From positions 26,784,001-26,848,000 of the forward strand of contig NC_047031.1 of the NCBI RefSeq assembly GCF_902652985.1: 64,000 nt of DNA, given 5' to 3'. Source of the DNA: Pecten maximus. Lineage: Eukaryota. Shown one piece after another: positions 2,691 to 62,400 of the stretch. How positions within the stretch are numbered: position 1 is the stretch's first letter; every line of letters begins with the position of its first letter. A model generated the notes under the pieces. That model had not been told where the DNA came from. It saw only the letters and a program-made list of their open reading frames with translations, and searched no databases. A program made the position numbers and the translations under genes.

Positions 2691-4814
2691 TTTAGCAATT
2701 TTTATAGGGCCGTCCTGCAATACTGCAATAGTATTGTATATTTAGCAATACAATTTATACAATGTACAATGTATTTTGTATTTACTCTTATATTTTAAAT
2801 AATGATTTAAAAAAAAAAAAGATTTGCATGCAAATAATGTAAACAATCACATTGCGCCCATTTTGAGTACCGACCTGACAATCTACATGTGTACAAGAAG
2901 GGCCAAAACGCAACTCTGCCTATACGAATACTCCGGTTATTTGCTTAACTTTTTTTTGTCAAAGAAAATGAGCTATGCAAACAAGCGGGTTGCTCTGTAC
3001 TTATAAATATTTCTGTCTAAGTGAAATGTTGCACTGGTTTGTTTACATGAACTGTATACAACGTGTTTGTGGATCATCAGGTGATCACAAAGGTCAGGGT
3101 TTATCTCATGAGGTCATCCATTATTTACCAACAAGATAAACCAACATCATGTTTACTTACATTACATGTATGACTAAAATGTGATATTCATGTATATTTA
3201 CATATATCTGTAAAATAGCTAACTCAGGAAAATTTTACTAACTATTTAAACCCCAATTTTGTGTGAAATTAATTTAAGATCAAAATTGCAAATAACTTTT
3301 TTTTTCTGCATGGCTTTTTATTCTTCCCATACCAACATCAGAACACAGGAAATGACATGTACATTTTTTTTATATGTTACATACACAGAAATCCATATTT
3401 TGATTGATTTTGAAATTTGTTGCCCTCGGCTTTAAACTCCGTGACACTTGAGTTATATACGATCCCTACTATTTCACCAGGGGGACTATACAGTAGGTTT
3501 CCACCTTGTCTGTCCATTTGTCCCTCCGTCCACTCAGTTTTCCTCACTTTTCTCAGCCATGCTTCCAGGTATATGTCAGTGAAAGTTGGTATGTAACTTA
3601 AGCATGTCAGGGTTTTTGGGTCAATGTCAAGGTCACTGTTACAATATTTAGTGGCCGGGTGTCACTTGTGTGTTAACAGCCTAATTATAGTATTCAATGA
3701 TAGAATTTTCTCTTAGACACGTTCCATTCCATTAGAAAAAATGTCCAGAAGTTGCTACAGGATTTCACATCGTTTCATATACATGTCCCAGAGTGTCATT
3801 GATAATTGACAAACTTAAAATACATTATAGCATTCAAATGAGTTTTCTCGGTCATTCCTATATAAACCATAATCAGCTACTCTAGCGCACGTGATCCTCT
3901 CGTGTACTTCCCTAGAAACTAAGCTGAATGTTATAACAAATAAATTAACATGCATATGCAAATGAGGTTAAATTAATTAATTTTAAATCTGTATCAAAAT
4001 TACTGGTTATGTTGTTACACATACCTTGAGACCAAAATGATACTCTATCATCAGAATCGTCACTGCATATATACATGTAACAGTATAGATTTAAATATAT
4101 TTGTAGTAGTATAGAACTTTGAATACATGTAATAATAAAGAACAGTTGTTATCTTCACAATTTAACAAGTAATATGATATATGCCACAAATATGCAAAAT
4201 ATTCATTTGTATGATTAATTCATGTTTTAAATTCTAGTTTAAAATCATTATGTTTATGCACATTTTTAATCTGGTGTATTTTCAGAAAGTTAGATAAAAA
4301 TGATCAAAATTATTTTCATCCTCTTTCAAGGTCATAGATGTCAATAATGTCAACTACAAACATAATTTTAAACAAATCTTCTATTTTATTGTGGGACATG
4401 CATTAATGTTCATCTTGTCCAGACAAGAAATGACTTTGAAGGGCACATGTAATATACATGTATGTTTAATCCTATATAAACTCTTATTGAATAAAACATT
4501 TTCTTTGTGTTGCTTTTAGTCAATGTATTGGCCATTTGAGCATAGGCCTGAAAAACCTAACAACCCTATATTTTTGTGCTATTTTCAAGAAGGACTATTA
4601 AAGTGAAGTGTCCGTATATACCTTTATCAAAATTTGTTTAAAATTAAAAAAAAGAAAAGATCCCAAGCTATTAGCTGTACCTTCCCTACATTTTTCTGGC
4701 ATGTTAGTGCTATTTTTAGGCCTGATTAAAGGATAGATACAGTAACTAAATAAATGTTGTCTGTAATTGTAGGCTATTGTTGCTGTGCTGAAAAAGAAAC
4801 CTCCGGAACCCACG

Positions 4815-6563
4815 ATGGCCACAGAACAGATCTACACGCGATCCTTGACAGAGGGTCTCCGTCGACTTCTGACAACCGGGGAACACAACGACGTCACAAT
4901 CCTTGTCGGCACAAAAACATTCCATTGCCATCGTCTCATCCTTGTAGCGCTATCATCCTACTTCGAAGCCATGTTCAATTCCGGAATGAAAGAAAGTATC
5001 AGTGGAGAAATAAAATTCCCCGACATGAACGAGGACCAATTTGAAATGGTGCTGGGATATATGTATTCTGGCAAGATTAATTTGGTGACAGAAAACGCTA
5101 TGGATATCCTAGATATAGCCTCCATATTGCAGATCAAGTCCCTACAAAGAATTTGTGAGGAATTTCTGCTTCCTCATCTAACAAAAGAAAACTGTATCAA
5201 GATCTGGAAAATTTCGGTCCTTCATTCATGTGATGTTCTCAGTGAGAAATCTTTCCAGATGATGGTGAAAAATTTCCAGGACATTTGCAAAGCTGAAGAG
5301 TTCAATGAACTGGAAGCTAAAGAGCTTGCAACGATACTGAAGGAGGATGATTTGAATGTTGAGAGTGAAGACAAACTTTGTGACATAGTGTTAAAGTGGA
5401 TAAAAAAAGACAAAGATGTGCGTACAAAGGATGTCGGACTGCTGTTTGAGAATATACGATTGCCTTTCCTCAAACCGGAGTACCTTCTAAATCTGGAGGA
5501 AGTCTACAAGTTTCTGAAGGATGACCCAAACTGTGCCAAATGTATAGACTTTGCCAAAAAGTACCATCTCCTTCCCGCACGTCAGCAAGAGATGTATAGC
5601 AATCAGACGCGATTCCGTAGCACAGCCGACTCCGAGGAAGTCCTTGTGTTACTGGGCGGATGTCTGACTACATCCCCGCCCTACTCAAGATCCCTCAAAG
5701 TGCCATGTTACAACTTCAGAAAGAGGGTGTGGTACGAGATTGCCCCTCTGCCCTTTGACCCCGGTATCGAGTTTGCGACATGTACATACAAGTCTGATAT
5801 CTACATAACTGGAGGTGGCTCTATGCAGAACTGCCTTCTCAAGTACGACTACAACAAGAACAAGTGGACACAGCTATGTACTATGAAGAGTGGTCGACGA
5901 CGACACGCCATGGTAGCTGTCACTGGGTACCTATATGTTATGGGTGGCTATGACAACAAACTAGCAGACGGTTCACGAATGATTTCCAGTATTGAACGTT
6001 ACGACATTCGCGAGGATGCATGGGAACATGTTGCAGATTTGATCATTCCGGTCAGTTCATTTTCGGCTGCGGTGATGTCGGACGTGATTTACATGTTCGG
6101 GGGAGAAATGAACGACCGTAAGGATACGTCGGTGATTCAATGTTATGACACACGCTTAATGACCACGTCAAAGATGGTGTGTAAGATTCTCCATCCTTGT
6201 AAACTCACACGTGCTGTGATATGTGGAAAGAGGGTGTTTCTGATCTTTTTTGATGGACAAGTGATGGAGTTTTCTCGGCACACGCAAGACAACACACGCG
6301 GGACGTGTCGTATGGTAGGTCAGCTCACTGCATTCCAGCGAATCCACTTCGGTGTGATCCATTTCCAGGGGAACGTGTTGGTATTAGGAGGGGAAATTGA
6401 CACTAACACTCTCTGTGACGATATGATCATGTTTGACCCCACAACCTCGGGTTGTAAGAAATTACTGGACACTCTCCCCGCTCCACGATTGATTGACAGC
6501 TGTGTCAAAACAGCCGTTAAGAAGAAATTTCTACAGATCCCGGAGGAACCAGATCCCAGATAA
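4815..6563 (+). CDS. Kelch-like protein (BTB-BACK-Kelch, KLHL family; putative Cullin-3 substrate adaptor), single coding exon
   Basis: BTB (DVTILVGTKTFHCHRLILVALSSYFEAMF), BACK (ENCIKIW...LNVESED...WIK...IRLPFL) and Kelch repeats with GG/Y/W signatures (IYITGG, LYVMGG, IYMFGG, VLVLGG). First ATG is at 4815 (the ORF track starts at a GTG). Likely splice acceptor TTGTAG ends at 4772. Confidence 0.95.
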   Translation: MATEQIYTRSLTEGLRRLLTTGEHNDVTILVGTKTFHCHRLILVALSSYFEAMFNSGMKESISGEIKFPDMNEDQFEMVLGYMYSGKINLVTENAMDILDIASILQIKSLQRICEEFLLPHLTKENCIKIWKISVLHSCDVLSEKSFQMMVKNFQDICKAEEFNELEAKELATILKEDDLNVESEDKLCDIVLKWIKKDKDVRTKDVGLLFENIRLPFLKPEYLLNLEEVYKFLKDDPNCAKCIDFAKKYHLLPARQQEMYSNQTRFRSTADSEEVLVLLGGCLTTSPPYSRSLKVPCYNFRKRVWYEIAPLPFDPGIEFATCTYKSDIYITGGGSMQNCLLKYDYNKNKWTQLCTMKSGRRRHAMVAVTGYLYVMGGYDNKLADGSRMISSIERYDIREDAWEHVADLIIPVSSFSAAVMSDVIYMFGGEMNDRKDTSVIQCYDTRLMTTSKMVCKILHPCKLTRAVICGKRVFLIFFDGQVMEFSRHTQDNTRGTCRMVGQLTAFQRIHFGVIHFQGNVLVLGGEIDTNTLCDDMIMFDPTTSGCKKLLDTLPAPRLIDSCVKTAVKKKFLQIPEEPDPR

Positions 6564-31805: not shown

Positions 31806-33101
31806 CTACATGTGCATATCCTGGAGTCCCATATCTTTCAGTATTTGCTGTGGAGTGAGATGTATTGATTTGGCTTTAAATTCAGCACTGCGCTTTAGTC
31901 CTCTCAACATTTTAACGCGCTCGTAAAATCCGGGTTTCCTCTGTTGCCGTTCAGACTCTATCAGGACATCGAGGTATTCCAACTCTGTAAGTGGGTTTAT
32001 CTTAATGGCGTTGTTCCGCAGATAGTTGCCACAATCCCTTACCTTATCCATCATTTGACAAACGGTGTCTTTTAATTTGAGAAAGGCATCTCCAAGACTT
32101 CGAAGGATGTGCTGCTTAGTAACCTTCCCTTCTTTTGCTATCTCTAACTTCTTTTTCATTTCTTCGTAAGATTTTGTTACTTTCACCTCCGTGACTTCTA
32201 TGCGAAAATCGTTGTTTCTATGCAACTGCCATCCACATTTCTGAGGACAAACTCTGCATTTTCCATTGCACATTGCTGCACAGAATGCCTTATCGTTGTC
32301 ATCAGGAATCCCACATGGATAATGACACGTGGAATGACAAAACGTACAGTTTGTGACGTACTCTCCTGGCCTTAGATTTACTTTTTTCTGTCGAAATTCA
32401 GATATCTCGTAAGTGAAGTTTTGGTTATCTTTAATTTCTCTTTCATATTTGTCCACAAGTTCGCGCTCGGACTTCATAGTTGCGAGGCCAATTAGACCCT
32501 GATCAATCTGTGGCAAGAGTCCTTGAACTGTCGCGTTGAGTTGTTCCCGTTTATTTAATACTTCTGCTGTTAGCTGTAAACTCTGAGTCCTCAATGATGG
32601 CAGAAAGTTGAAAAAGCCGTCATAGCTAGTGAAACCCATCTCCCAAAACATCTTGCCGAATCTATTACACTTGCTATCTGTGTTTGATTCGAAAAGTGCG
32701 GAATTGTTAAATATAAAGTGTTTTTTTGTAGGAATTGCAGCTTGCATCAGAGCATTTAGTACCGGTGGTTCCTTTCCGTCTGCAAATGTTACCATAGCAA
32801 CGAGGTTTTCTTTCATGTCTTTGCCGAATATGGATAGAATGGAATCGTAGATATATCGTTGTGTTTGTGTAAGCCTTGCAAGAGGTGCCTGCGTGACAAA
32901 ACATACCGCATCTATGGTTTCTATTCCTTTGACACCTTTCGTGTCGAAGAAGGCGCGGATCTGGTCCACAAGTTGATGGTCTCTTTCTATCCCTCTAGTA
33001 TCTCCGAATCCTGGGGTGTCTATTATGTTGCAAATAAACTTAACAGTTCTGTTCATAGGATGAACTCTATAACTGGTAATCCAGTCTGTTTGTGATTCCG
33101 T
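31806..33101 (-). CDS. FN3-GTPase gene coding exon 4 (G2-G4, Cys-rich motif, coiled coil)
   Basis: Acceptor TTTCTTAG|ACG, then TESQTDWITSY...IIDTPGFGDTRG...NCTFCHSTCHYPC...CRVCPQKC. Stop at 31806. Confidence 0.92.
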   Translation of the reverse strand, partial: TESQTDWITSYRVHPMNRTVKFICNIIDTPGFGDTRGIERDHQLVDQIRAFFDTKGVKGIETIDAVCFVTQAPLARLTQTQRYIYDSILSIFGKDMKENLVAMVTFADGKEPPVLNALMQAAIPTKKHFIFNNSALFESNTDSKCNRFGKMFWEMGFTSYDGFFNFLPSLRTQSLQLTAEVLNKREQLNATVQGLLPQIDQGLIGLATMKSERELVDKYEREIKDNQNFTYEISEFRQKKVNLRPGEYVTNCTFCHSTCHYPCGIPDDNDKAFCAAMCNGKCRVCPQKCGWQLHRNNDFRIEVTEVKVTKSYEEMKKKLEIAKEGKVTKQHILRSLGDAFLKLKDTVCQMMDKVRDCGNYLRNNAIKINPLTELEYLDVLIESERQQRKPGFYERVKMLRGLKRSAEFKAKSIHLTPQQILKDMGLQDMHM

Positions 33102-36100
33102 CTAAGAAAGGAAACAAAAAAGTACAATGAAAAAATTATACTCTTTTGGTAATAACTACTAAATACTAGTCGAATGTAGGCTGGGTTTTTGTCCATGGTG
33201 AATCCTATAAGGACTAAACAGTTTGATTCCTTTTTTTCGTAGTTAATGGTGACATCTGCTTCTTTTCTTTTGCGTTATTTAACATCTTATCATCACATAT
33301 GTGGGAATTGTATGCGTTTGTCGAGTGTGTGCATTTTGGGAGGCTGTGGTATGTTCGTGGTTGTCTCCCTTTGATAGCGCGAAACTGATGCCGACTATAT
33401 AGTGCTAACTCACTGAAGCATACTGCTGAATACCAAACAGTACACCCAACCCGGTCATATTATAACACTTACAATGGACGAAAAAGCTCGTCCAACTTCC
33501 AAAATGCTGAGCGCTAAAGATAAATTGTAGCTACCAATTTTATAGACTCTGGTATGTGTCAGCCAGAAGACATGACCCAATTCCCTCCTTACATTGGCAA
33601 GCAAATACTTCACTCCGCATCGGCACATTTTGCTACAATAAATCAAGTTACTCACCTCTAATCCTCTCTTGGCTTCCTCTTCAGTCATTAGGTCGATGAT
33701 TTTAAATCTGAAGTCATCTGCCCACTTGACTCCCAGAAGATGATTCACCATTCCATCAATGAGGGTGCTCTTGCCTGATCCGGTTGCCCCAATCATCATT
33801 ATTGTCTTTTCCTGAAGACGATCGGAAGAACCTGGAAGTAAAATTGCACAAGTTTTTAGATTGCATTTATCGTTGAGCAATAATTATAGAGTAAATCTTA
33901 ATAAGAATATTATTATGATAATAAAACTAATTCCATACTGATGATGACTTAAGTATAAGGAAGTCTTACCGAATTCACACTTTCTCGTTTTGTACTCTGT
34001 GCTTCTGGCATCCATATTTTCCTTCAATGGTAGTTTGTAGAATGCTGGTTCCCCACCCTGCAGCTTAACGCATACATTACGCACAGACAAGGCTGGTGAT
34101 TGTAATGTGCTTATTGCATCACTTTGTCCACTGAAATCACCTTCTCCATTTTTATAATGTGCCCTAACCTTGAACGTGTATTCAGTATCTTGGAGTAGGC
34201 CACGGACGAAAATTTGGGAAGAGTCGTCGGTTGTTGTCGCAGAGTTCTTACTCCATAGCTCATCCTGTATAAGTTTGTTCTTAACTTCATAGTACAGGAC
34301 ATTTTTGTCATCTGGGGCGACCCATATAAGACGTATAAAGTCACTTCCGCTGTCAGACCGTGTTGGTTTACCGGGTCGGTTTGAATGTTTAACCTGTGAA
34401 TCTGAAAATTGATGAAGAGACCCCTTAGAACTTACGTTCATATATTATATATTTAAGTTTTGCAACAAATCAGTTATCTTAATCGATTAAATTAAGTTTC
34501 ATAGTTACGTTATAAACTTAAATATGAATTGCTAAAGTTTGATTTCTTTGTCAATAGCAACACTGGCTATCAAACTGTTTAATCGTTAACTGCTACTTAC
34601 CGTTTCGGGTTTGATTGCTGTAATGTGCAGTCAAGCTTTTGGTTGTTGATCCTTCAGATGAAGGGAACGTTTCTAAAAATGGACCATGGAACAAATAATC
34701 CTCTTTTCGAATTGGCAATACATTGGTGCTACTTAATGAGCGGGGTTCAGTGACCATACGATGTCCTTGTCCCATCCTAAGGTAATCAGCGCAGTACCCT
34801 CCATCAGTTTGTCTTGGCGAGCGATACCATGTTAAACCTTCCGACGGTATGCTAAAGTTGTCCTCATCGGTGGGGGAACATTTTCCCTGAAATTTCACAA
34901 CCGACAAGACATTTTCTCTCTCGTCTGTGTTTTCGACATCGCCCGATGTTGCAATAATATCGCTAACATCACTAAAGGGCCCTTCATCATCCTGAAAATG
35001 TGCACGAACTTTAAACACGTAGCATGTTGTAGGTAACAGGTTTGTCACTCGAAGGAACGTTTTGGCATCTTCCGTGAACACAGGCATCTTGTCCCATGCT
35101 TGGCTTCTTGTGCGTTTGGATTTCAACTCGTAGTATGAAACATTTCTGTCTTCAGGCGCATCCCAACGTAAATCGGTGAAGTCTCTACCTACAGCTAAAC
35201 TGCATAGCTTCCCTGGTTTTCGCGATGGAATATTAGACGTCGTAGTGTCAGAAGAACCGTCCTTAAACATAGAGGACTGTTTTGTCAATACGGGGTCGCT
35301 CTTCTCGCTAAATTGACCTTCATCCTCCTGGTAATGACCACGCACTTTAAACTCGTATTGTATCTCAGGCATGAGATCCGCAACTCTCTTGTAGGGCGTG
35401 TTGTCTCTTGTAAAAATGGGCATTTTAAACCAGCATTCATCTCCCGTAATCTTTAACTTTACTTCATAATATTCAAGGTCACTTTTGACTGGTTTATCCC
35501 ACGCGATGCACGCGTAGTCACAGCCAACTTCCAACGCAGCCGGTTTACCTGGTTGACTGGAAGACGCTGTATCATAGGGACACGTTTCCGTGTTCCAATA
35601 TCTGAGTCTTAATGACATCGCTCGCTTCGCTGTATATGCCGTCAAAAGATTGGTAATGTGACTTGACTTTAAAATGGTATCCGGTAGCAGGCTGAAGTTC
35701 AGCCGATCCGGTAGAATGTGTTGGCATTTTCTGTCAATACAGGTCTTGACCAGCTGACATCCTTTGAAGATTTGAATTTGATTTCGTAAAACTTCACATT
35801 TTTGACTTTCGGTTTATCCCATCCGAGCTGCACGTGGTCTTCCTGCACATCTAATGCAGTAGGCTTTCCCGGTCTATGTCTAAGTTGATCCTCATTTGAT
35901 GGTAAATTTTCAACTACCTGTGACTTGGTCTTAAAAGGATCGCTCACTTCGCTGAAGTCACCTTCTTTGTCTTGATAATGTGCTCTTACTTTAAGTTCAT
36001 ATTCTGTATCTGGATCCAGACCTCTCAGCTGATGACAAGGCTTGTCAAAGTCAGTGAAGACCGGTCTATGCCAAGTGGTGTCGGTCATTGTCTTAAACCT

Positions 36101-36442
36101 GATTTCATAATACGAAATGTCGCGTTCCATAGGTTTTGTCCATTCTAGTAGTATAGAAGTGCATCCAATTTCACGAGCTTTTGGTTTCCCCGGTGTAGTA
36201 GCTGATGTTTTGTTTCCAGTTACATCGGAATCACTATTATTCAAATTCTCCAAAGATAGGTGAGTATCGGCAAATGCGGTTTTCTCAACATCGTCATTTA
36301 TTCCAGATGATGCGATCACTTCAAAACTGTCCGACTCAGATGTTTTGAGTGAGGCTGTTCCTGATGCTCCATTTGATACGGTTTCGCTGGAATCGCAGTC
36401 GGCCTCTTCTGCCGACGACATTTCCATACTTATGGTTGACAT
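31806..36442 (-). CDS. 5x fibronectin type III + AIG1/septin-like P-loop GTPase + Cys-rich + coiled-coil protein (about 1247 aa if two frameshifts are corrected; possibly a pseudogene allele)
   Basis: Exons 36442-34601, 34401-33970, 33831-33656 and 33101-31806 have GT-AG sites and consistent phases (1,1,0). G1 GATGSGKS, G2 SQT, G3 DTPG, G4-like TFAD. Five PGKP/PGKL...W...Y.FKV.AHY-type FN3 repeats. Confidence 0.88.
33295..33615 (-). mobile_element. Degenerate SINE (Meta-domain-like) in intron 3 of the GTPase gene
   Basis: Plus-strand TATAGTGCTAACTCACTGAA motif resembles reverse-oriented Meta-SINE cores. A similar decayed copy lies at about 47560-47710. Confidence 0.4.
33656..33831 (-). CDS. 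FN3-GTPase gene coding exon 3 (P-loop G1)
   Basis: Acceptor TTCCAG|GT, KTIMMIGATGSGKSTLIDGMVN, donor GAG|GTGAGT. Confidence 0.88.
33970..34401 (-). CDS. FN3-GTPase gene coding exon 2 (FN3 repeat 5)
   Basis: Acceptor TTTTCAG|AT, donor TTCG|GTAAGA. Confidence 0.85.
34601..36442 (-). CDS. FN3-GTPase gene coding exon 1 (FN3 repeats 1-4; two +1 frameshifts)
   Basis: ATG at 36442. Donor G|GTAAGT at 34600. Frameshifts at about 35703 and about 35578. Confidence 0.8.
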
Positions 36443-36861
36443 ATAGCTAAGCCATATTATTTAATACAAATCTCTGTTGGTGTTGTTACGCGTCACAGTG
36501 TCCTTTTATCGTCTTCTCAGATGGTAGTAGTGTTAACTTGCTCCGAAATCCTTACAGCTCGAATCCAGGAAGATGATTGATACTGAGGCGAGATAAACCA
36601 TCAAATTCATCTCAGGTAACATGGGTCTATGGTTTTATGATATTAAGGAAATTAAGTTGGTTTAAATCCAAATGAACACACTAATTCAAATTTCATAAGT
36701 TATAGCTCTTTTGAAATGAATATATTTTGGCATTATCTATATCATGAAGTTGTTATGGTTCAGTAGAACAATCAATAAGGACAAGGGAGATAAGTGTTAG
36801 GAAATATAAATCAGGGATTACACAGGGATAACGTACCTATCAATATATCAAAATGAACATA

Positions 36862-49932: not shown

Positions 49933-50151
49933 TTTGGTTTGTTTTTGTTTAACGTCCTATTAACAGCCAGGGTCATTTAAGGATGTACCAGGTTTTGGAG
50001 GTTGAGGAAAGTCGGAGTACCCGGAGAAAAACCACCGGCCTACGGTCAGTACCTGGCAACTGCCCCACGTAGGTTTTGAACTCACCACCCAGTGGTGGAG
50101 GGCTAGTGTTAAAGTGACGGGACACCTTACACACTCGGCCTCCGCGGCCCC
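49933..50151 (-). mobile_element. Full-length V-type SINE with 12-bp TSD
   Basis: tRNA-like head GGGGCCGCGGAGGCCGAGTG...GAGTTCAAAACC, V domain and AAAC tail. CAATATTACTCT is duplicated at 49921-49932 and 50152-50163. Confidence 0.88.
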
Positions 50152-50169
50152 CAATATTACTCTCCTCAT

Positions 50170-56465: not shown

Positions 56466-59400
56466 ATGGACTCAGACGGGACAGCTACACAGGTAACGTA
56501 CAAGTGTATGACTTCTCACCTCTCCTGCAAACTAAACATTTTCTAACTTAAATTAATTTCTTTTATCAGAAAAAGAAATGTTATAACACTTTGCGAGCAT
56601 ATACATAATAAAGGAAACGTTACAATATACATTCGTTTCTTCAATACAACAATAGTATAAGGTTTATAGAAATTTAAACAGATGATCAAGAAGTAAATAT
56701 GCTTATTATAAGACCGACTCGTATATTGCTATTGTTAATACTACTTGTCTACACAATATGTAGATTATTTTCACCTGATAAAAAGGTATTATGGTGTAAA
56801 AGGCAACAATACCTTCTCATTGGGCATAGATTATCTACATAGTTTGTAAACTATTAGTAAAACCTAAAGTAGGCATTCTTATAAGCACATTTGCTTCTTG
56901 ACCACATGTTTGTCTGAAAATTCAATGTGTGTATTTTATTCTTATATTCTAGTCGTCCAATATTTGCAATAATTAAGGATATACCTGTTGTCAAATATCT
57001 ATAAAAACAGTTGTTGCTACAACTTTCACACTCTCATTGAAATCATAGACTTGTTTAGCGGTGTTCATACTGTAATTCACTTATATTTCGCGTGGGACCT
57101 AGTTTCGTTTTGACACGCCGGGATAGTCAATCGCGAAGTAAAATCCTTCGCGACTACTTATATGAAAACAGCACCTTGGGATGACGGCCAAGCCATCGGT
57201 TACCGATAAAGCCTCACTCTGATAGTTTAATCGCGAATTTTAATTCATTTCTAGACCAGCGTTCGCGAAATCATGTGTTCGCGAATATTTCTGCAGAGTT
57301 AAGTTCGCGCAATAAAGAACAGTCACTAACCGTGCTTAATGTTATCCAAACATATTCGTATTTATGTATAAACGACTCAAAAATGTTTTGATATGAATTC
57401 AGATTCAGATAAGAGATGCTCTGACCAACAGAGATGTGCCTGTCAAGGTGTTTGGTTGGATACACAGGATCTTGAGGCATGGTTAGTGCTATTAAGTATT
57501 GATGTCATTTTTTTGTAGTTTCATCAGGGTATGAAACAAATTTTGTTTGCAAACTGTATGAATCCGCGTAGTATACCCCGATGAAACTAAAACAAATTGA
57601 CATCAACGCTTATAATTAATTTTTGAAAATGATTTTCTAATTTAAAACATGTTTTATGTACAATTTTACTGGTTTTAAATGGGATTCTTTTTTCTCAAAT
57701 AAATTCGCAACGTCGTATTGTGACGTCACATTGTTCGCGCCATTCTCGGAATTTCTTTCTTTTTTTTCGACCAATTACATTTTAGTATTTACCATGAAAA
57801 CAAAGAAAAGTTAATTATTCTGATATAGAATCAATGTATAACAGATTTTTGCTCCTAATTTCTCAATAATCGCTTCAAAAAAACACGTTTTAGAGGAATT
57901 AATGTAATATGTATACATGGTATGTTGTTTTGACTAAATGTGTATTAAATGATGGCATTGTTAACTTTTCACAATTTCCTGGGTATTGTCCACATCGGTT
58001 ATATCCATAGAGATGTTCACTGTACAAGTGATGTATATATTGATATATACAATGTATCATATCTAAATATATGCTTGGCTTGTTGTCATGACTTATTGAG
58101 TGCTACATAAGTATCTACTTAAATGGAGTTACTGTGAACAATCCGCAGTTCTCTGTGTATAGTCAATGATAACGCGTATAACTAGCGAGATTTATAATAG
58201 GACATTTGAAACAGAAACACAGAAACACAGAAACCCAACACTGGCAGGTTACCATTAAAATAAGTATGCATAAATGAATGATAATAATTAGAAATATAGA
58301 TTCTTATATGTGAGTAGACATTGAGAGTATCGTAGTTATTATACGCGTTTGTATACGGTCGAGGGCAATTATATCGTTGACGAATGTTTAACTGTAACCA
58401 ATTGACTATTAATTATAGAATGTAAAAAAATGTTGTTATAATCTACAAAAGCCAAATATGACGATCGTCATATACGTTATAAACATAAAATATCCAGTAG
58501 GTTTCACATGATATACTTGTTAAAATATGATTAAATGTGAACGAATCAACCCCAACCACACCCCCACTCATACCCACCACCTAACCAGACCCCAACCCCC
58601 AGTCTTGTCAAATACTAACACACATACCGTTAAGATGAAAAAACATATTGTTACTTTTTTCGAATATTTTCCAGTCTCAGATGACGTCACAACCAAGGGA
58701 GATAACTGTGTGCAGACGCTATGATTTTCCCGACGTACAAAAATGTCATTTTTCAAATGACGAATAATGCATGAAAACAATTTTTGTATAACGTATTTTT
58801 ATTAAGGATTATTAATATTTTTACACAATATTTGGCCATTTTTATGTTTTTGTGGTTGTTCACCCTTTAATTACTTAAAATTAACATCTACATCTTACCA
58901 GTATAGTTCAATAATGACAATAGATAATGATCTTCTAGAAACTCATTTATTTACAGATAATGAAGGAATGGTGGTTTTGCTTAGAGATGGTACAGGGTTT
59001 TTGAAATGCGTTTTCTCAGACCAGTTGGTAAGTTTTTTATAGAGGTTTCATGGTATAATCAGATTAAATTGTCTAATTTTTTATTTAGATTTCACATTTA
59101 TTTATTATCATTTATGTATATCGGGGAATGATATTTTTATATTGAAATATGTTGATAATATTCATGTATCTAACCTGATCTATCAATTTGAAATGAAATG
59201 GAAGCAAACTCTATCATTGTCAATAATTTATATAATCGCGAACATTATTTTACTTTGCATCATTGATATCTCAGAATTAATACTTAAACGTATTGCGTTT
59301 ACCAACCACAAAACGCTATCCTCATAAAAATCATGCTAATAGTAAGCCTTCTTTTCCCTTTAATGATTGATATTTCTTTTCGCGGAAGTAAGTTTGCATT

Positions 59401-62400
59401 ATAATGTTTTCTACTAATATTTTCTGCAAATTATTTCTACCCTATAAAATATTAAAAAGACTAACTTTGTCGTTCAAATGTGTAGTTGTTAAGTTTCACG
59501 GTGCTAATATCTCAGGGTTGTGAATGGTTCGTGGACATTAAATTCCGACCAACACCCCCTTGTAAACATTCTGTAATAGACACATACATGCATGTGTGTG
59601 TACATCATAATAAATCTGTGGGTATTTATTTTCACACTATGTTTATGGCCGTGAAAACCACTTAAAGAAATTCTCACGAATATTACCAAATATACAGACC
59701 CGCATTTATCTCAAATATATTTTGAAGGAGTTCATTAGATCAATGACAAAGTATGTTTTTTTGTAGATAGTGCAACTTTCTGTTCATTTTTTGTCGGTAC
59801 AGTATCGTATGTACAGTGGTGTTGCAAGAGAAGCCTCTGTCTGTATCTACGGTAAAATCTCAGCTATTCCCGAGGATAACGCTGTAAGTATCTCACAGAG
59901 AACATATGTATCTATCAACGATATCATTTAAGGATTGAATCTTGATTTGGTCGATTTCATGGGGTTTTCTCAAGAGCAACTCAATTCATGACCCCATGAA
60001 ATCGACCAAATCAAGATTCAATCCTTATATTCAATTGTGTCTTGGGGTTTTTTTCGAATAAAAAAGTCGGTCTATATGCAAGTCCAAATGCGGAAAAGCC
60101 CGAGGAGTTCCGGATTGTGCATGTCTAGTCGGTCGAGTAAAATAGTCCGCAATTTTAGGATTAAAAACAGCATTATTTTGTCAAAATAGAAGTATCTTGC
60201 ATATCTGGTTTTAATAAAATACAAGAGAATACATTATAACTTTGATAATTTTAATAATTATTCCATGTTTATAACAACAATGTAGAAAAAGTGAAATCAT
60301 TCCGCGGAAGGATTTTAACCATATATCCATGCGCACTGATCAGTGTTAATCTGGTCAAATTCATGAGCAAATGAAACAGATTAAGTGTGGTAGTTTCATT
60401 GAGTCCAACTTGAGTAGAAATTGAAATATTTGTGTATATCTATGTGTGCGATATTACATTTAAATGCTACTCTGATAGTAGCAAATTTAGAATGTATACA
60501 TACATTTTATGATGATAATTTATAATATTTAAGATTTATATGAAACGAATCCTCAGCTCACAAATTGTTGCGATATTATATTTAAATACTGCTCTGAATG
60601 TAACCATTTAAGAACATGCATTTTATAACAATGGTAATTTGTGATAGATGAATATTCATTGAAGTTACGAAACACTTATGAATGTTAATTGACGAGCATA
60701 TATTTACCATACATATTGTACATTATTGCAGGCCCCTGATGGACTTGAGCTTAGTGTTGATTTCCTAGAGGTAATAGGGACTTCGCCCCAAGGAGGAGTT
60801 GACGAAATCGTCTCCAAGGTATTTCATAGCAAACAAAACTCTGATTGTTTACATTAATGTGTAATGTTTAGTTGTTACATTCTTAACAGTCAATCGACCC
60901 CGTAAAGGCCATTAAGACCAAAACAATGGTGCTATAAATAAACATCAAACGGATTTATGATACATGTATCCTCTCCTCAAATGCAAAGTAACGTTGTTGT
61001 GGCATACTACGGATCATTCGACAAATAAATAATTCATAGTTAAGTTTTCGATTTTAGTCAAACCTTGACTGATAGCTTTAGGATATGTTTTAAACAAACC
61101 ATTTTATCTATGTTTCAGAAATAAAGAGTACTAATATGTTTATATATACAATGTACATACATAAAAAAATGTATAAATATTTCAAGGATTATGATATTTT
61201 TTAAAAATCGATATACTTAGTATATGTGAATCATTACTATTAAATATATTGTAATCAATTAAGAACCAATTAATCCAGTTTGGTTGAGTGAAAGTGTAAC
61301 TGTGGGTGTATAAATATTAATGTTTTGTCTTCTTTCGTGTATTGTGTTATATGTCATATTTTGTAAACAAAACTTAAAAATGAATAAAAAATAAATTTAA
61401 AAGTATGTTTTCGACCGATGAATGTTTTGTGGGTTTATGGACGTTGCACTCATTAATAGCTTAACTTGTTCATCTTGATCGTTGGATACCCATGGTCGAA
61501 TGCGCTAAACTACGTTACACTAATCACGCGATACGGGTAGGTGCAATGTAATCGACCATTGGTACCCTTAGATGTCAATATATAAATTCGATTCCATTCA
61601 ACGTTTAACTTTAATCAGAATGTAAACAACCATGAAATACCAAATGATTTTCAACAACTTAAGAGACCGTAACATCAGATCAGTTTGTTCAGTTGTTTTG
61701 TAACCTAAATAGTACATCATAAAATAAACATCACATTCCAACCATAACATTTAATCAATTAGTAAGTTGTTTGTATACTACATGGTTCATTATAAAATAA
61801 TATCACATTCCATCCATAGCATTTGATAAGTTTTATCCCCTCAAGTGAACCCGGTACCCTGTCTATTTGGTGTGTTTTCAAGGCCGAGCCGCTCCCTTGA
61901 GACGGACATTGTCTTCGACGGGTTGGGTTGTATGTGCCCTCGCCTAAGCGCTCGTGAAATATTGAACTCGTTTGATACATTAATAACTCTATATAGCATA
62001 GCCACTCCTGTCAGATCCTCTCGGTGATATGTTTCACCAATGAAAACCTCTCACGAATTGTTTACTCACCTAACAGTGTACCAGTACGGAGGACCAGCTG
62101 GACCATCGACACCTGATGTTGAGGCAAGAAGAGGTAAGTACGGTTGTCTGTAAACAGAGAATACCACATTTAAAACGCTACCGCAATTCTAACTCAGAAT
62201 TCTTAAAACAAGGGCAAGATAGGATCGAAGTATAGATCTACGCATACACTATCTAACGGCATCAAAAGTAGCAGAGGATTCAGGCGTAATTAATTCAAAA
62301 GTAAAATATAAAAAAGAAATGGGATAACAAGACCGGTACTAATACAGGGAAAATAGGAGAAGTTGCCCTGCAGGATAACATAATGACTGGAATTGATTTC

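Follow-up and report, generated by a model that had tools for sequence, protein, structure and literature searches.

A Pecten maximus paralogue of asparaginyl-tRNA synthetase with altered tRNA-contact elements and a conserved asparaginyl adenylate site

The window analysed here is a stretch of 64 000 nucleotides from Pecten maximus (G000:C17:26784001-26848000), in which positions are counted from the first letter and, past the window end, in continued numbering. It holds the larger part of a paralogue of the cytosolic asparaginyl-tRNA synthetase (AsnRS, gene NARS1), besides the features collected in Table 1. The gene corresponds, by exact spliced alignment on the + strand, to RefSeq protein XP_033725306.1 (P0001, 442 amino acids, ‘asparagine--tRNA ligase, cytoplasmic-like’), the numbering of which is used throughout; of the best 120 of 486 matches to exon 9 as a protein query, no other exceeds 85% identity. 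By descent the paralogue is a eukaryotic cytosolic NARS1: it has the class II domain (PF00152, E 2e-69) and the oligonucleotide-binding (OB) fold (PF01336, E 3.8e-9), lies in the scallop clade and has introns in common with the canonical genes, and a protein atlas searched with it returned only AsnRS. It is changed at elements expected to contact tRNA and unchanged at the site that activates asparagine, a combination from which we propose, with a little less than even confidence, that it is an adenylating enzyme working independently of tRNA.

The gene spans positions 56466 to 68113, i.e. past the window end, in 14 exons; all 13 introns are GT-AG and the terminal stop is the only stop. An earlier note, made from the letters of the window, had described nine in-phase exons without stops within 57403..60818, in a spliced gene missed by the open reading frame track. 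That the gene is spliced, stop-free over its 14 exons and skipped by that track is correct, yet RefSeq already annotates it, and the exon count has to be revised: four exons, which code for the OB fold and the beginning of the hinge, lie within that interval, nine within the window (56466-63665) and five beyond its end. Neither are all exons in phase, one intron being in phase 1 and another in phase 2. The downstream exons, in which stops or frameshifts were to be looked for, contain none through exon 14, and the indels of the gene are in-frame only. Exon 1 stands in place of the entire N-terminal extension of ∼125 amino acids and may derive, by decay, from the end of canonical exon 5 (3′ side), a weak likeness to judge from the 7 of 2120 control windows that score equally high. 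Exons 10-14 encode the remainder of the catalytic domain, in which MTD reads LIG in the insertion helix, and keep D357, E365, R372, the motif 3 arginine R416 and the C-terminal YPRF.

A search for a second, canonical NARS1 locus, as the earlier note had advised, found two copies in tandem on contig C9, P0122 (C9a) and P0124 (C9b; G000:C9:37995209-38011234), so that the paralogue is indeed an intact duplicate, with the canonical pair on another chromosome. The paralogue is 63% identical to canonical NARS1. Its exons 2-14 correspond to canonical exons 6-18, with the same boundaries and phases and 12 internal intron positions in common; it is therefore a duplicate made at the DNA level, and a retrocopy origin is ruled out. 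None of its 13 introns can be aligned to its C9 counterpart, but between C9a and C9b an alignment is still possible for 16 of 17, and hence the paralogue split off before those two separated. Trees place it inside the scallop NARS1 clade (support 99/99 and 97/95), its position among the scallops not being fixed, on a protein branch of 0.55-0.65 against 0.003-0.06 for the canonical scallop copies. Four derived residues in common with C9b raised the possibility of an origin from that copy, but were set aside as homoplasy, the paralogue introns aligning with neither C9 copy. We also considered a split gene or misassembly, with the N-terminal exons left behind at C9:37.97 Mb, and ruled it out: the remnant at that place closely resembles canonical C9a (89% across exon 5 and its flanks; no exon 3 or 4 was found) and is therefore younger than the paralogue. 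The remnant itself (G000:C9:37970624-37973898, - strand, L015) is what is left of a third tandem NARS1 copy similar to C9a, with exons 1, 2 and 5 only. As to C9b, it carries Q151H, as the paralogue does, together with QSR>KSH in the motif-2 loop, and the C9a/C9b differences are mostly derived in C9b; this copy may be entering on the same relaxation.

The starting point of the earlier note was that three residues reading the anticodon had been replaced (R->L, F->V and Q->K) in a segment given as [25 protein letters not shown]. This segment, which spans exons 2 and 3, is confirmed, and the replacements are real: L33, V41 and K52 stand at columns occupied by R, F and Q in the canonical copies and, all three together, in 202 of 204 reference eukaryotic AsnRS. 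The two exceptions are a protein with a gap at Q and a coral protein, P0169, considered below; the L, V or K of the paralogue is found at the respective column in 0/204. From canonical to paralogue the codons read AGG>TTG, TTC>GTG and CAG>AAA. The same columns, which by alignment are R138, F146 and Q157 of human AsnRS, have R/F/Q in 338 of the 360 aligned stretches that cover all three among the AsnRS/AspRS-type proteins fetched. Human LysRS reads U35/U36 through R136, F144, Q155 and E195 (PMC11643047), and its triad has the spacing, 8 and 11, of the columns changed in the paralogue. It is on this spacing that we would equate the AsnRS triad with the U35/U36 readers of LysRS; U35 is an identity element of the Asp, Asn and Lys tRNAs (PMC9976931). 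Of the surrounding fold residues that had been noticed as kept, LRDGTG and the ELS glutamate E92 (E in 204/204 references) are indeed so. Among prokaryote-like AsnRS, we came across P0337 (Logan) and P0348/P0389 (ENA), which still have an OB fold but have lost the EGG loop and two or three residues of the triad. The microsporidian P0280 had for a time been taken for another case of multiple loss (S/F/K), but was dropped as it reads R/F/K on visual inspection.

The departure from normal tRNA-Asn recognition that had been deduced from the triad is what the sequence changes as a whole appear to indicate, and they reach well beyond it. The N-terminal extension, AsnRS_N (PF20917), is absent from P0001 in a domain scan, and the four genome-wide matches to this family are all on C9. 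A search of the 67 kb upstream gave no exon-level match to hidden Markov models of the N-terminal exons (best E 0.83), although a strongly diverged exon could escape it: in the control, exon 5 of the C9 remnant was detected and exon 2 was not clearly so. The paralogue differs at 23 of the 135 columns that are at least 95% conserved in the 204 references, namely at 5/17 in the OB fold, 1/4 in the hinge, 0/6 in the motif 1 region, 8/12 in the flipping loop and hairpin, 4/40 in residues 189-300, 3/9 in the insertion helix and 2/47 in the last 117 residues, where both changes are conservative. The OB fold, hinge, flipping loop and motif-2 loop, named as tRNA-contacting in AspRS (PMC3824080), together have 14 of 39 columns changed, as against 9 of the other 96 (Fisher p 6e-4), the region boundaries having been drawn after the per-column changes had been inspected. 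In human AsnRS the acceptor stem requires a movement of the flipping loop (PMC10831071). Its QxEGG reads KFEVA in the paralogue: only the glutamate is kept, the glycine pair found in 204/204 references is lost, and a proline and one residue are gained. Compared with C9a, the paralogue loop differs at 8 of 12 positions and that of the badger enzyme at 1 of 12.

Quite the opposite is seen at the Asn/ATP site. We hand-picked 12 residues of it (flipping-loop E, TQSSQ, motif 2 R/E/H, EAE, D/E, GGSMR and motif 3 R), for the most part after class II structures, in which the counterparts of D357, E365 and R416 are Mg/phosphate ligands, and all 12 are kept. The choice of the others was based on human AsnRS, in which E279, R322 and E324 bind Asn-AMP (PMC10831071): the corresponding R216 and E218 are retained, and so is E173, equivalent to the Asn-binding E279 and the one invariant residue of the flipping loop to bind asparagine, although the loop around it has been rewritten. 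The 32 codons of the active-site region show a single nonsynonymous change (Y>F, a residue present in 14/204 references) and 11 synonymous ones; under a neutral simulation, all 12 residues would be kept with P 4e-3 at 0.2 changes per site and P 3e-6 at 0.5. An AlphaFold2 model (mean predicted local distance difference test score 88.7, lower at 171-180) superposes on human AsnRS with a template modelling (TM) score of 0.94 and a root-mean-square deviation of 1.8, which, an alignment of canonical enzymes having been the input, is a matter of fold compatibility and no more.

A similar pattern was met in corals. According to gene models, Montipora foliosa and M. capricornis carry, beside a canonical gene (P0409/P0410 and P0416), a second NARS1 copy on another contig, P0169/P0390 in M. 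foliosa and P0411 plus a 77-residue piece, P0391, in M. capricornis (XP_068683400-402.1, XP_068728747.1). P0169 is the sole row among the 204 references with two triad losses. Over 432 core positions, the coral copies show 36 (M. foliosa) and 38 (M. capricornis) differences from canonical M. foliosa NARS1, an identity of 92%. Six of the changes are at near-invariant columns (R33V, F41L, Q171H, T177K, L178R and A217E), all six in anticodon, flipping-loop or motif-2-loop elements and five at columns changed in the scallop as well. If the two triad changes that flagged the coral copy are left aside, the rest are still 4/4 in the flipping and motif-2 loops (p 2e-4) and 3/4 at scallop-changed columns (p 0.012). 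R221 is altered in scallop and coral paralogues alike, the coral flipping loop reads HAEGGLKR, with charged residues gained, and the active-site residues are kept at 12/12. The M. foliosa paralogue models are without a 31-residue lysine-rich N-terminal stretch. In class IIb enzymes such a stretch binds tRNA. A tRNA-binding role of the N-terminus is given, in general terms, for yeast AspRS (PMC9976931). The coral paralogues group with the coral canonical genes (96/92), and a tree joining them with the scallop paralogue in one clade is rejected (p-AU 2e-5), so that the two cases are independent. The triad is intact in the eight Acropora, four Porites and one Oculina proteins aligned.

The earlier note had also called for the ratio of nonsynonymous to synonymous change (dN/dS). 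Nei-Gojobori counts over 432 codons of three scallop coding sequences, with no outgroup, give dS 1.06, dN 0.22 and dN/dS 0.21 (bootstrap 0.15-0.28) on the path to the paralogue and dN/dS 0.08 for the last 117 codons; with the first ratio below 1 and 12/12 active-site residues kept, the paralogue is not a plain decaying copy. Change declines with conservation class, from 47/70 variable columns through 63/157 and 22/69 to 23/135 near-invariant ones. If rates were equal on the two lineages, a dN of 0.62 would place the flipping-loop region close to neutrality or beyond it. Exons 13-14 of the paralogue and their flanks are also present in a partial duplicate (G000:C17:27646134-27647599, - strand, L027; 87.6% identical), around which exons 1-12 were not found in the 70 kb examined; a further piece lies near C17 27691466. 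Non-coding divergence between the two is 9.9%, and the exons differ at 9/264 bases (p 5e-4). The amino-acid differences, GGSMR>GGFMR among them, are derived in the duplicate in 4/4 cases and in the paralogue in none, which, the numbers being small, argues for recent constraint on the paralogue.

These data bear on the possibility that the paralogue is a decaying or silent duplicate, on which selection has been relaxed or has ended, with tRNA-contact surfaces drifting first, and which is functionless now. The long protein branch and the 47 variable columns changed would agree with this, as would the broken NARS1 fragments found elsewhere in the genome. The earlier note had asked whether the paralogue is conserved across molluscs, and no orthologue appeared in other scallops among the best matches listed, another point in favour of decay. 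Nevertheless, we consider decay improbable: the 14 exons and 13 GT-AG introns are intact and indels in-frame, even though no intron can be aligned any longer; dN/dS is low, change declines with conservation and the active site is untouched; exons 13-14 are without amino-acid change since the partial duplicate split; and the same pattern is kept in two coral species.

Among the functions that had been suggested, adenylate synthesis and use of a non-tRNA acceptor seem to fit best. The paralogue would be a tRNA-independent enzyme that makes Asn-AMP and passes it to an acceptor other than tRNA, ATP/ADP in the first place and protein lysine in the second; we hold this to be close to an even chance, on the lower side. 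The protein would fold and dimerise as AsnRS does (TM 0.94 in the model), the OB fold serving as a structural part of the dimer. Asn and ATP would then bind and react to Asn-AMP, held by E173, R216, E218, E233, R372 and R416, and tRNA would not be docked, because triad, basic N-terminal extension, flipping-loop glycine pair and motif-2 loop are all changed. The last step is the least certain: the adenylate may be discharged on a nucleotide, giving diadenosine tetraphosphate or triphosphate (Ap4A/Ap3A), or on a protein lysine or other amine, two outcomes between which we divide the weight of this reading about equally. Diadenosine polyphosphate synthesis is our first choice because it needs only the site that was kept and is documented for Brugia AsnRS, which makes Ap3A (PMC4709172); lysine aminoacylation driven by aminoacyl-AMP has been proposed for human synthetases (PMC13022859). 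More broadly, scallop and Montipora may tell us that NARS1 duplicates repeatedly became tRNA-independent Asn-activating enzymes through the same edits, with an undescribed Asn-AMP output, e.g. protein asparaginylation or Asn-gated dinucleotide signalling. This generalisation is tentative, and we would sooner doubt than assert it.

A number of observations weigh against a tRNA-independent adenylating enzyme. The tRNA-facing residues R34, E92, R126, H127, R131, E218 and H225 are kept. Q>K occurs, with R and F kept, in the AsnRS of the microsporidian Enterospora canceri (P0280) and in the similar P0293. Both presumably charge tRNA, and because of P0280 a single triad change need not abolish charging. 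The OB fold has a dN/dS of 0.22, i.e. it is under purifying selection as a whole. The coral case was spotted after the fact among 204 rows. The dS path includes the canonical lineage, there being no outgroup, and on the assumption of equal rates the paralogue branch by itself could have a dN/dS near 0.4. The 4:0 split relative to the partial duplicate is a small count, and that duplicate has 4 changes where about 10 would be predicted under neutrality. Exon 1 and its start come solely from the RefSeq model, which is also the only record of the gene (a sequence cluster of 1), and its expression is thus putative. As to orthologues, none was found in other scallops, though Mizuhopecten, Argopecten and Ylistrum proteins were in the collection; the search took in the best 120 of 486 and the best 120 of 4734 matches, 2 of 13 short candidates and 150 representatives, and could overlook unannotated or weaker-scoring copies. 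Finally, nothing in the sequence names the acceptor, and a protein that binds its ligands without turning them over would explain the retained binding residues just as well.

With respect to expression, contigs of four sequencing runs, out of 23 among which no RNA source was listed, were aligned over exons 1-12. No exon-exon joint of the gene was seen among the 15 joints listed of 35, and bins with exons 9, 10 and 11 were uncovered in all four runs; one X4 contig crosses exon 7 unspliced into both flanking introns and could come from DNA or pre-mRNA. As no control gene was aligned, these data speak neither for nor against expression.

One reading of the tRNA-related points is that RNA charging persists, either as weak or conditional charging of tRNA-Asn or as charging of another tRNA or RNA through an anticodon pocket remodelled to L/V/K. 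The retention of the OB fold under selection, of E92 and R34, of the hinge residues R126/H127/R131 and of the motif-2 E and H that contact CCA all speak for it, as does the tolerance of Q>K in microsporidia, and bacterial precedents exist in ProRSx and CysRS* (PMC9437257). We think it unlikely, because triad, N-terminal extension and invariant flipping-loop glycines were lost together and anticodon and acceptor-end contacts are altered in scallop and coral alike. Nor is a partner apparent for the altered tRNA specificity that had been envisaged: exact matches to the tRNA-Asn arm carry GTT in 23/23 cases, and no tRNA gene was found in any of the 23 stretches scanned around the loci. The NCBIfam asnS equivalog model also gives the paralogue 327, below its cut-off of 342.6, while P0122 (378) and P0124 (389) pass; this test is weak, since the model is built on prokaryotes and leaves the microsporidian P0280 (321) under the cut-off too. 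We note in passing a cluster of 20 tRNA-Asn(GTT) arm matches within 37 kb at G000:C7:18290575-18327058.

Another possibility is a regulator that binds ligands with little turnover: a sensor of Asn/ATP (or Asn-AMP), or a subunit that tunes NARS1 activity in a heterodimer with it. This would account for the motif 1 region, unchanged at 6/6 near-invariant columns, and the residues needed for binding are identical to the catalytic ones; non-catalytic synthetase paralogues do exist in animals, such as SLIMP (Table 1 of PMC9437257). A binding-only role would, however, be expected to let some of the chemistry drift, and the full set, D357, E365 and R416 included, has been kept over a dS of about 1; no new partner-binding domain is present either. 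On balance a regulator appears unlikely. An enzyme like asparagine synthetase (AsnA or archaeal AS-AR), which would adenylate the Asp side chain and add ammonia, comes to mind since AS-A and AS-AR are tRNA-independent descendants of AspRS/AsnRS (Table 1 of PMC9437257), and PDB entries 1nnh and 3p8t are among the structure matches. It is highly improbable here: such an enzyme would have a pocket remodelled to take Asp in reverse orientation and no OB fold, whereas in the paralogue the amino-acid pocket is unchanged from that of AsnRS and the OB fold is present, and the NCBIfam model of asparagine synthetase A gives 119 against a cut-off of 368, compared with 121 for canonical NARS1. A chemokine role of the filarial type, also suggested, is disfavoured, as the IL-8-like activity of the Brugia enzyme is assigned to its N-terminal domain (PMC4709172), and the paralogue is devoid of this domain.

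How does the proposed tRNA-independent enzyme compare with known systems? NARS1 itself (human 8H53/8TC8; Pecten P0122 and P0124) is alike in fold, Asn-AMP site and intron positions, the paralogue differing in the absence of PF20917, the L/V/K triad, the rewritten flipping and motif-2 loops and MTD>LIG. The Montipora paralogue resembles that of the scallop in being a second copy with triad R and F lost, flipping and motif-2 loops changed and active site intact, but it is much younger, keeps the triad Q, the glycine pair and MTD, and occurs in two species. Adenylation uncoupled from tRNA charging is found in EpmA/PoxA/GenX, the aa:CP ligases, AS-A/AS-AR and LeuRS-I (PMC9437257); these are prokaryotic and of other parentage, their anticodon domain is usually deleted rather than mutated, and their acceptors are mostly known. 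The EpmA family (TIGR00462), a LysRS-derived catalytic domain lacking the anticodon domain that transfers an amino acid onto a lysine of a protein, is not among the 13 NCBIfam matches of the paralogue at E<=1e-10, and its OB fold is present, so by family models it is neither EpmA nor asparagine synthetase A. Animal synthetase duplicates with changed roles include SLIMP, derived from SerRS, and TARS3/ThrRS-L; SLIMP is reported to have lost the active site (PMC10570016), the reverse of the scallop pattern, and ThrRS-L still charges tRNA. Both appear in Table 1 of PMC9437257, in which no animal paralogue derived from AsnRS is given. The AsnRS of Brugia malayi was likewise amplified and has a side activity (Ap3A), but with the IL-8-like N-terminal domain that the scallop copy does not have. 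We found no description of a scallop AsnRS paralogue in the literature searched, which did not cover subscription journals and in which the corals were not named.

Synthetases also act outside translation (in diadenosine polyphosphate synthesis, lysine aminoacylation and amino-acid sensing), but these roles are difficult to study in a protein that translation cannot do without; for lysine aminoacylation, it is said to be unclear whether an enzyme directs it (PMC13022859). If our proposal is true, the paralogue would be a natural separation-of-function version of AsnRS, and an animal enzyme selected for adenylation alone would make enzyme-directed lysine aminoacylation directly testable. The 36 changes that separate the coral copy from the canonical protein narrow down the substitutions by which activation may be uncoupled from the charging of tRNA.

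Table 1. Exons of the AsnRS paralogue and other features of the window (numbers above 64000 are continued past the window end)
Feature	Position	Strand	Remarks
Exon 1	56466..56492	+	RefSeq model; MDSDGTATQ, ATG in AAAATGG context
Exon 2 (= canonical exon 6)	57403..57481	+	OB fold start; R22P, R33L (57472-74), Q35H
Exon 3 (= canonical exon 7)	58957..59027	+	F41V (58971-73), Q52K (59004-06); LRDGTG kept
Exon 4 (= canonical exon 8)	59803..59883	+	OB fold; 2 codons shorter than canonical; PEGK>PEDN
Exon 5 (= canonical exon 9)	60732..60818	+	OB fold end, E92 kept; hinge start
Exon 6	62077..62133	+	Hinge; R126, H127, R131 kept, G132Q
Exon 7	62616..62693	+	Motif 1 region (dimer interface); residues 136-165: 0/6 near-invariant columns changed
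Exon 8	62988..63068	+	Flipping loop QTQVEGGST>[10 protein letters not shown], 1-codon insertion; E173 (63024-26) kept
Exon 9	63544..63665	+	TQSSQLYLE intact; motif 2 R216, E218, R223, R224, H225 kept; loop AEQSR>VEHKQ
Intron 9 start	63666..64000	+	Gene continues beyond window end
Exons 10-14	64722-64857, 65186-65299, 66169-66300, 67539-67670, 67982-68113	+	G000:C17:26848722-26852113
38-bp unit x4.2	62667-62824		After exon 7
Copy of exon 11 start	65018-65053		
BTB-BACK-Kelch reading frame	4773-6563	+	Uninterrupted, 596 codons
LINE-like reverse transcriptase remnants	17535-21315		Adjoin the PF01129 reading frame
ADP-ribosyltransferase reading frame	21464-22093	+	ART-family domain (PF01129, E 2.7e-7)
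Fibronectin type III/GTPase gene	31806-36460	-	Several fibronectin type III repeats, then P-loop/AIG1-like GTPase and coiled region
∼200-bp repeat	49933-50158, 65920-66139		tRNA-like 5′ end

Two of the features in Table 1 belong to a wider phenomenon: tandem copies of exon ends, with the splice site, sit in the adjacent introns at several NARS1 exons, and intron 17 of both C9a and C9b has arrays of ∼66 bp made of the end of exon 17. Among the neighbouring genes, the one with fibronectin type III repeats (LINE in the table stands for long interspersed nuclear element) probably encodes an immune-type GTPase. The ∼200-bp repeat, which has many copies in the C9 and C17 loci and is heavily represented among the aligned sequencing contigs, is probably a tRNA-derived short interspersed nuclear element.

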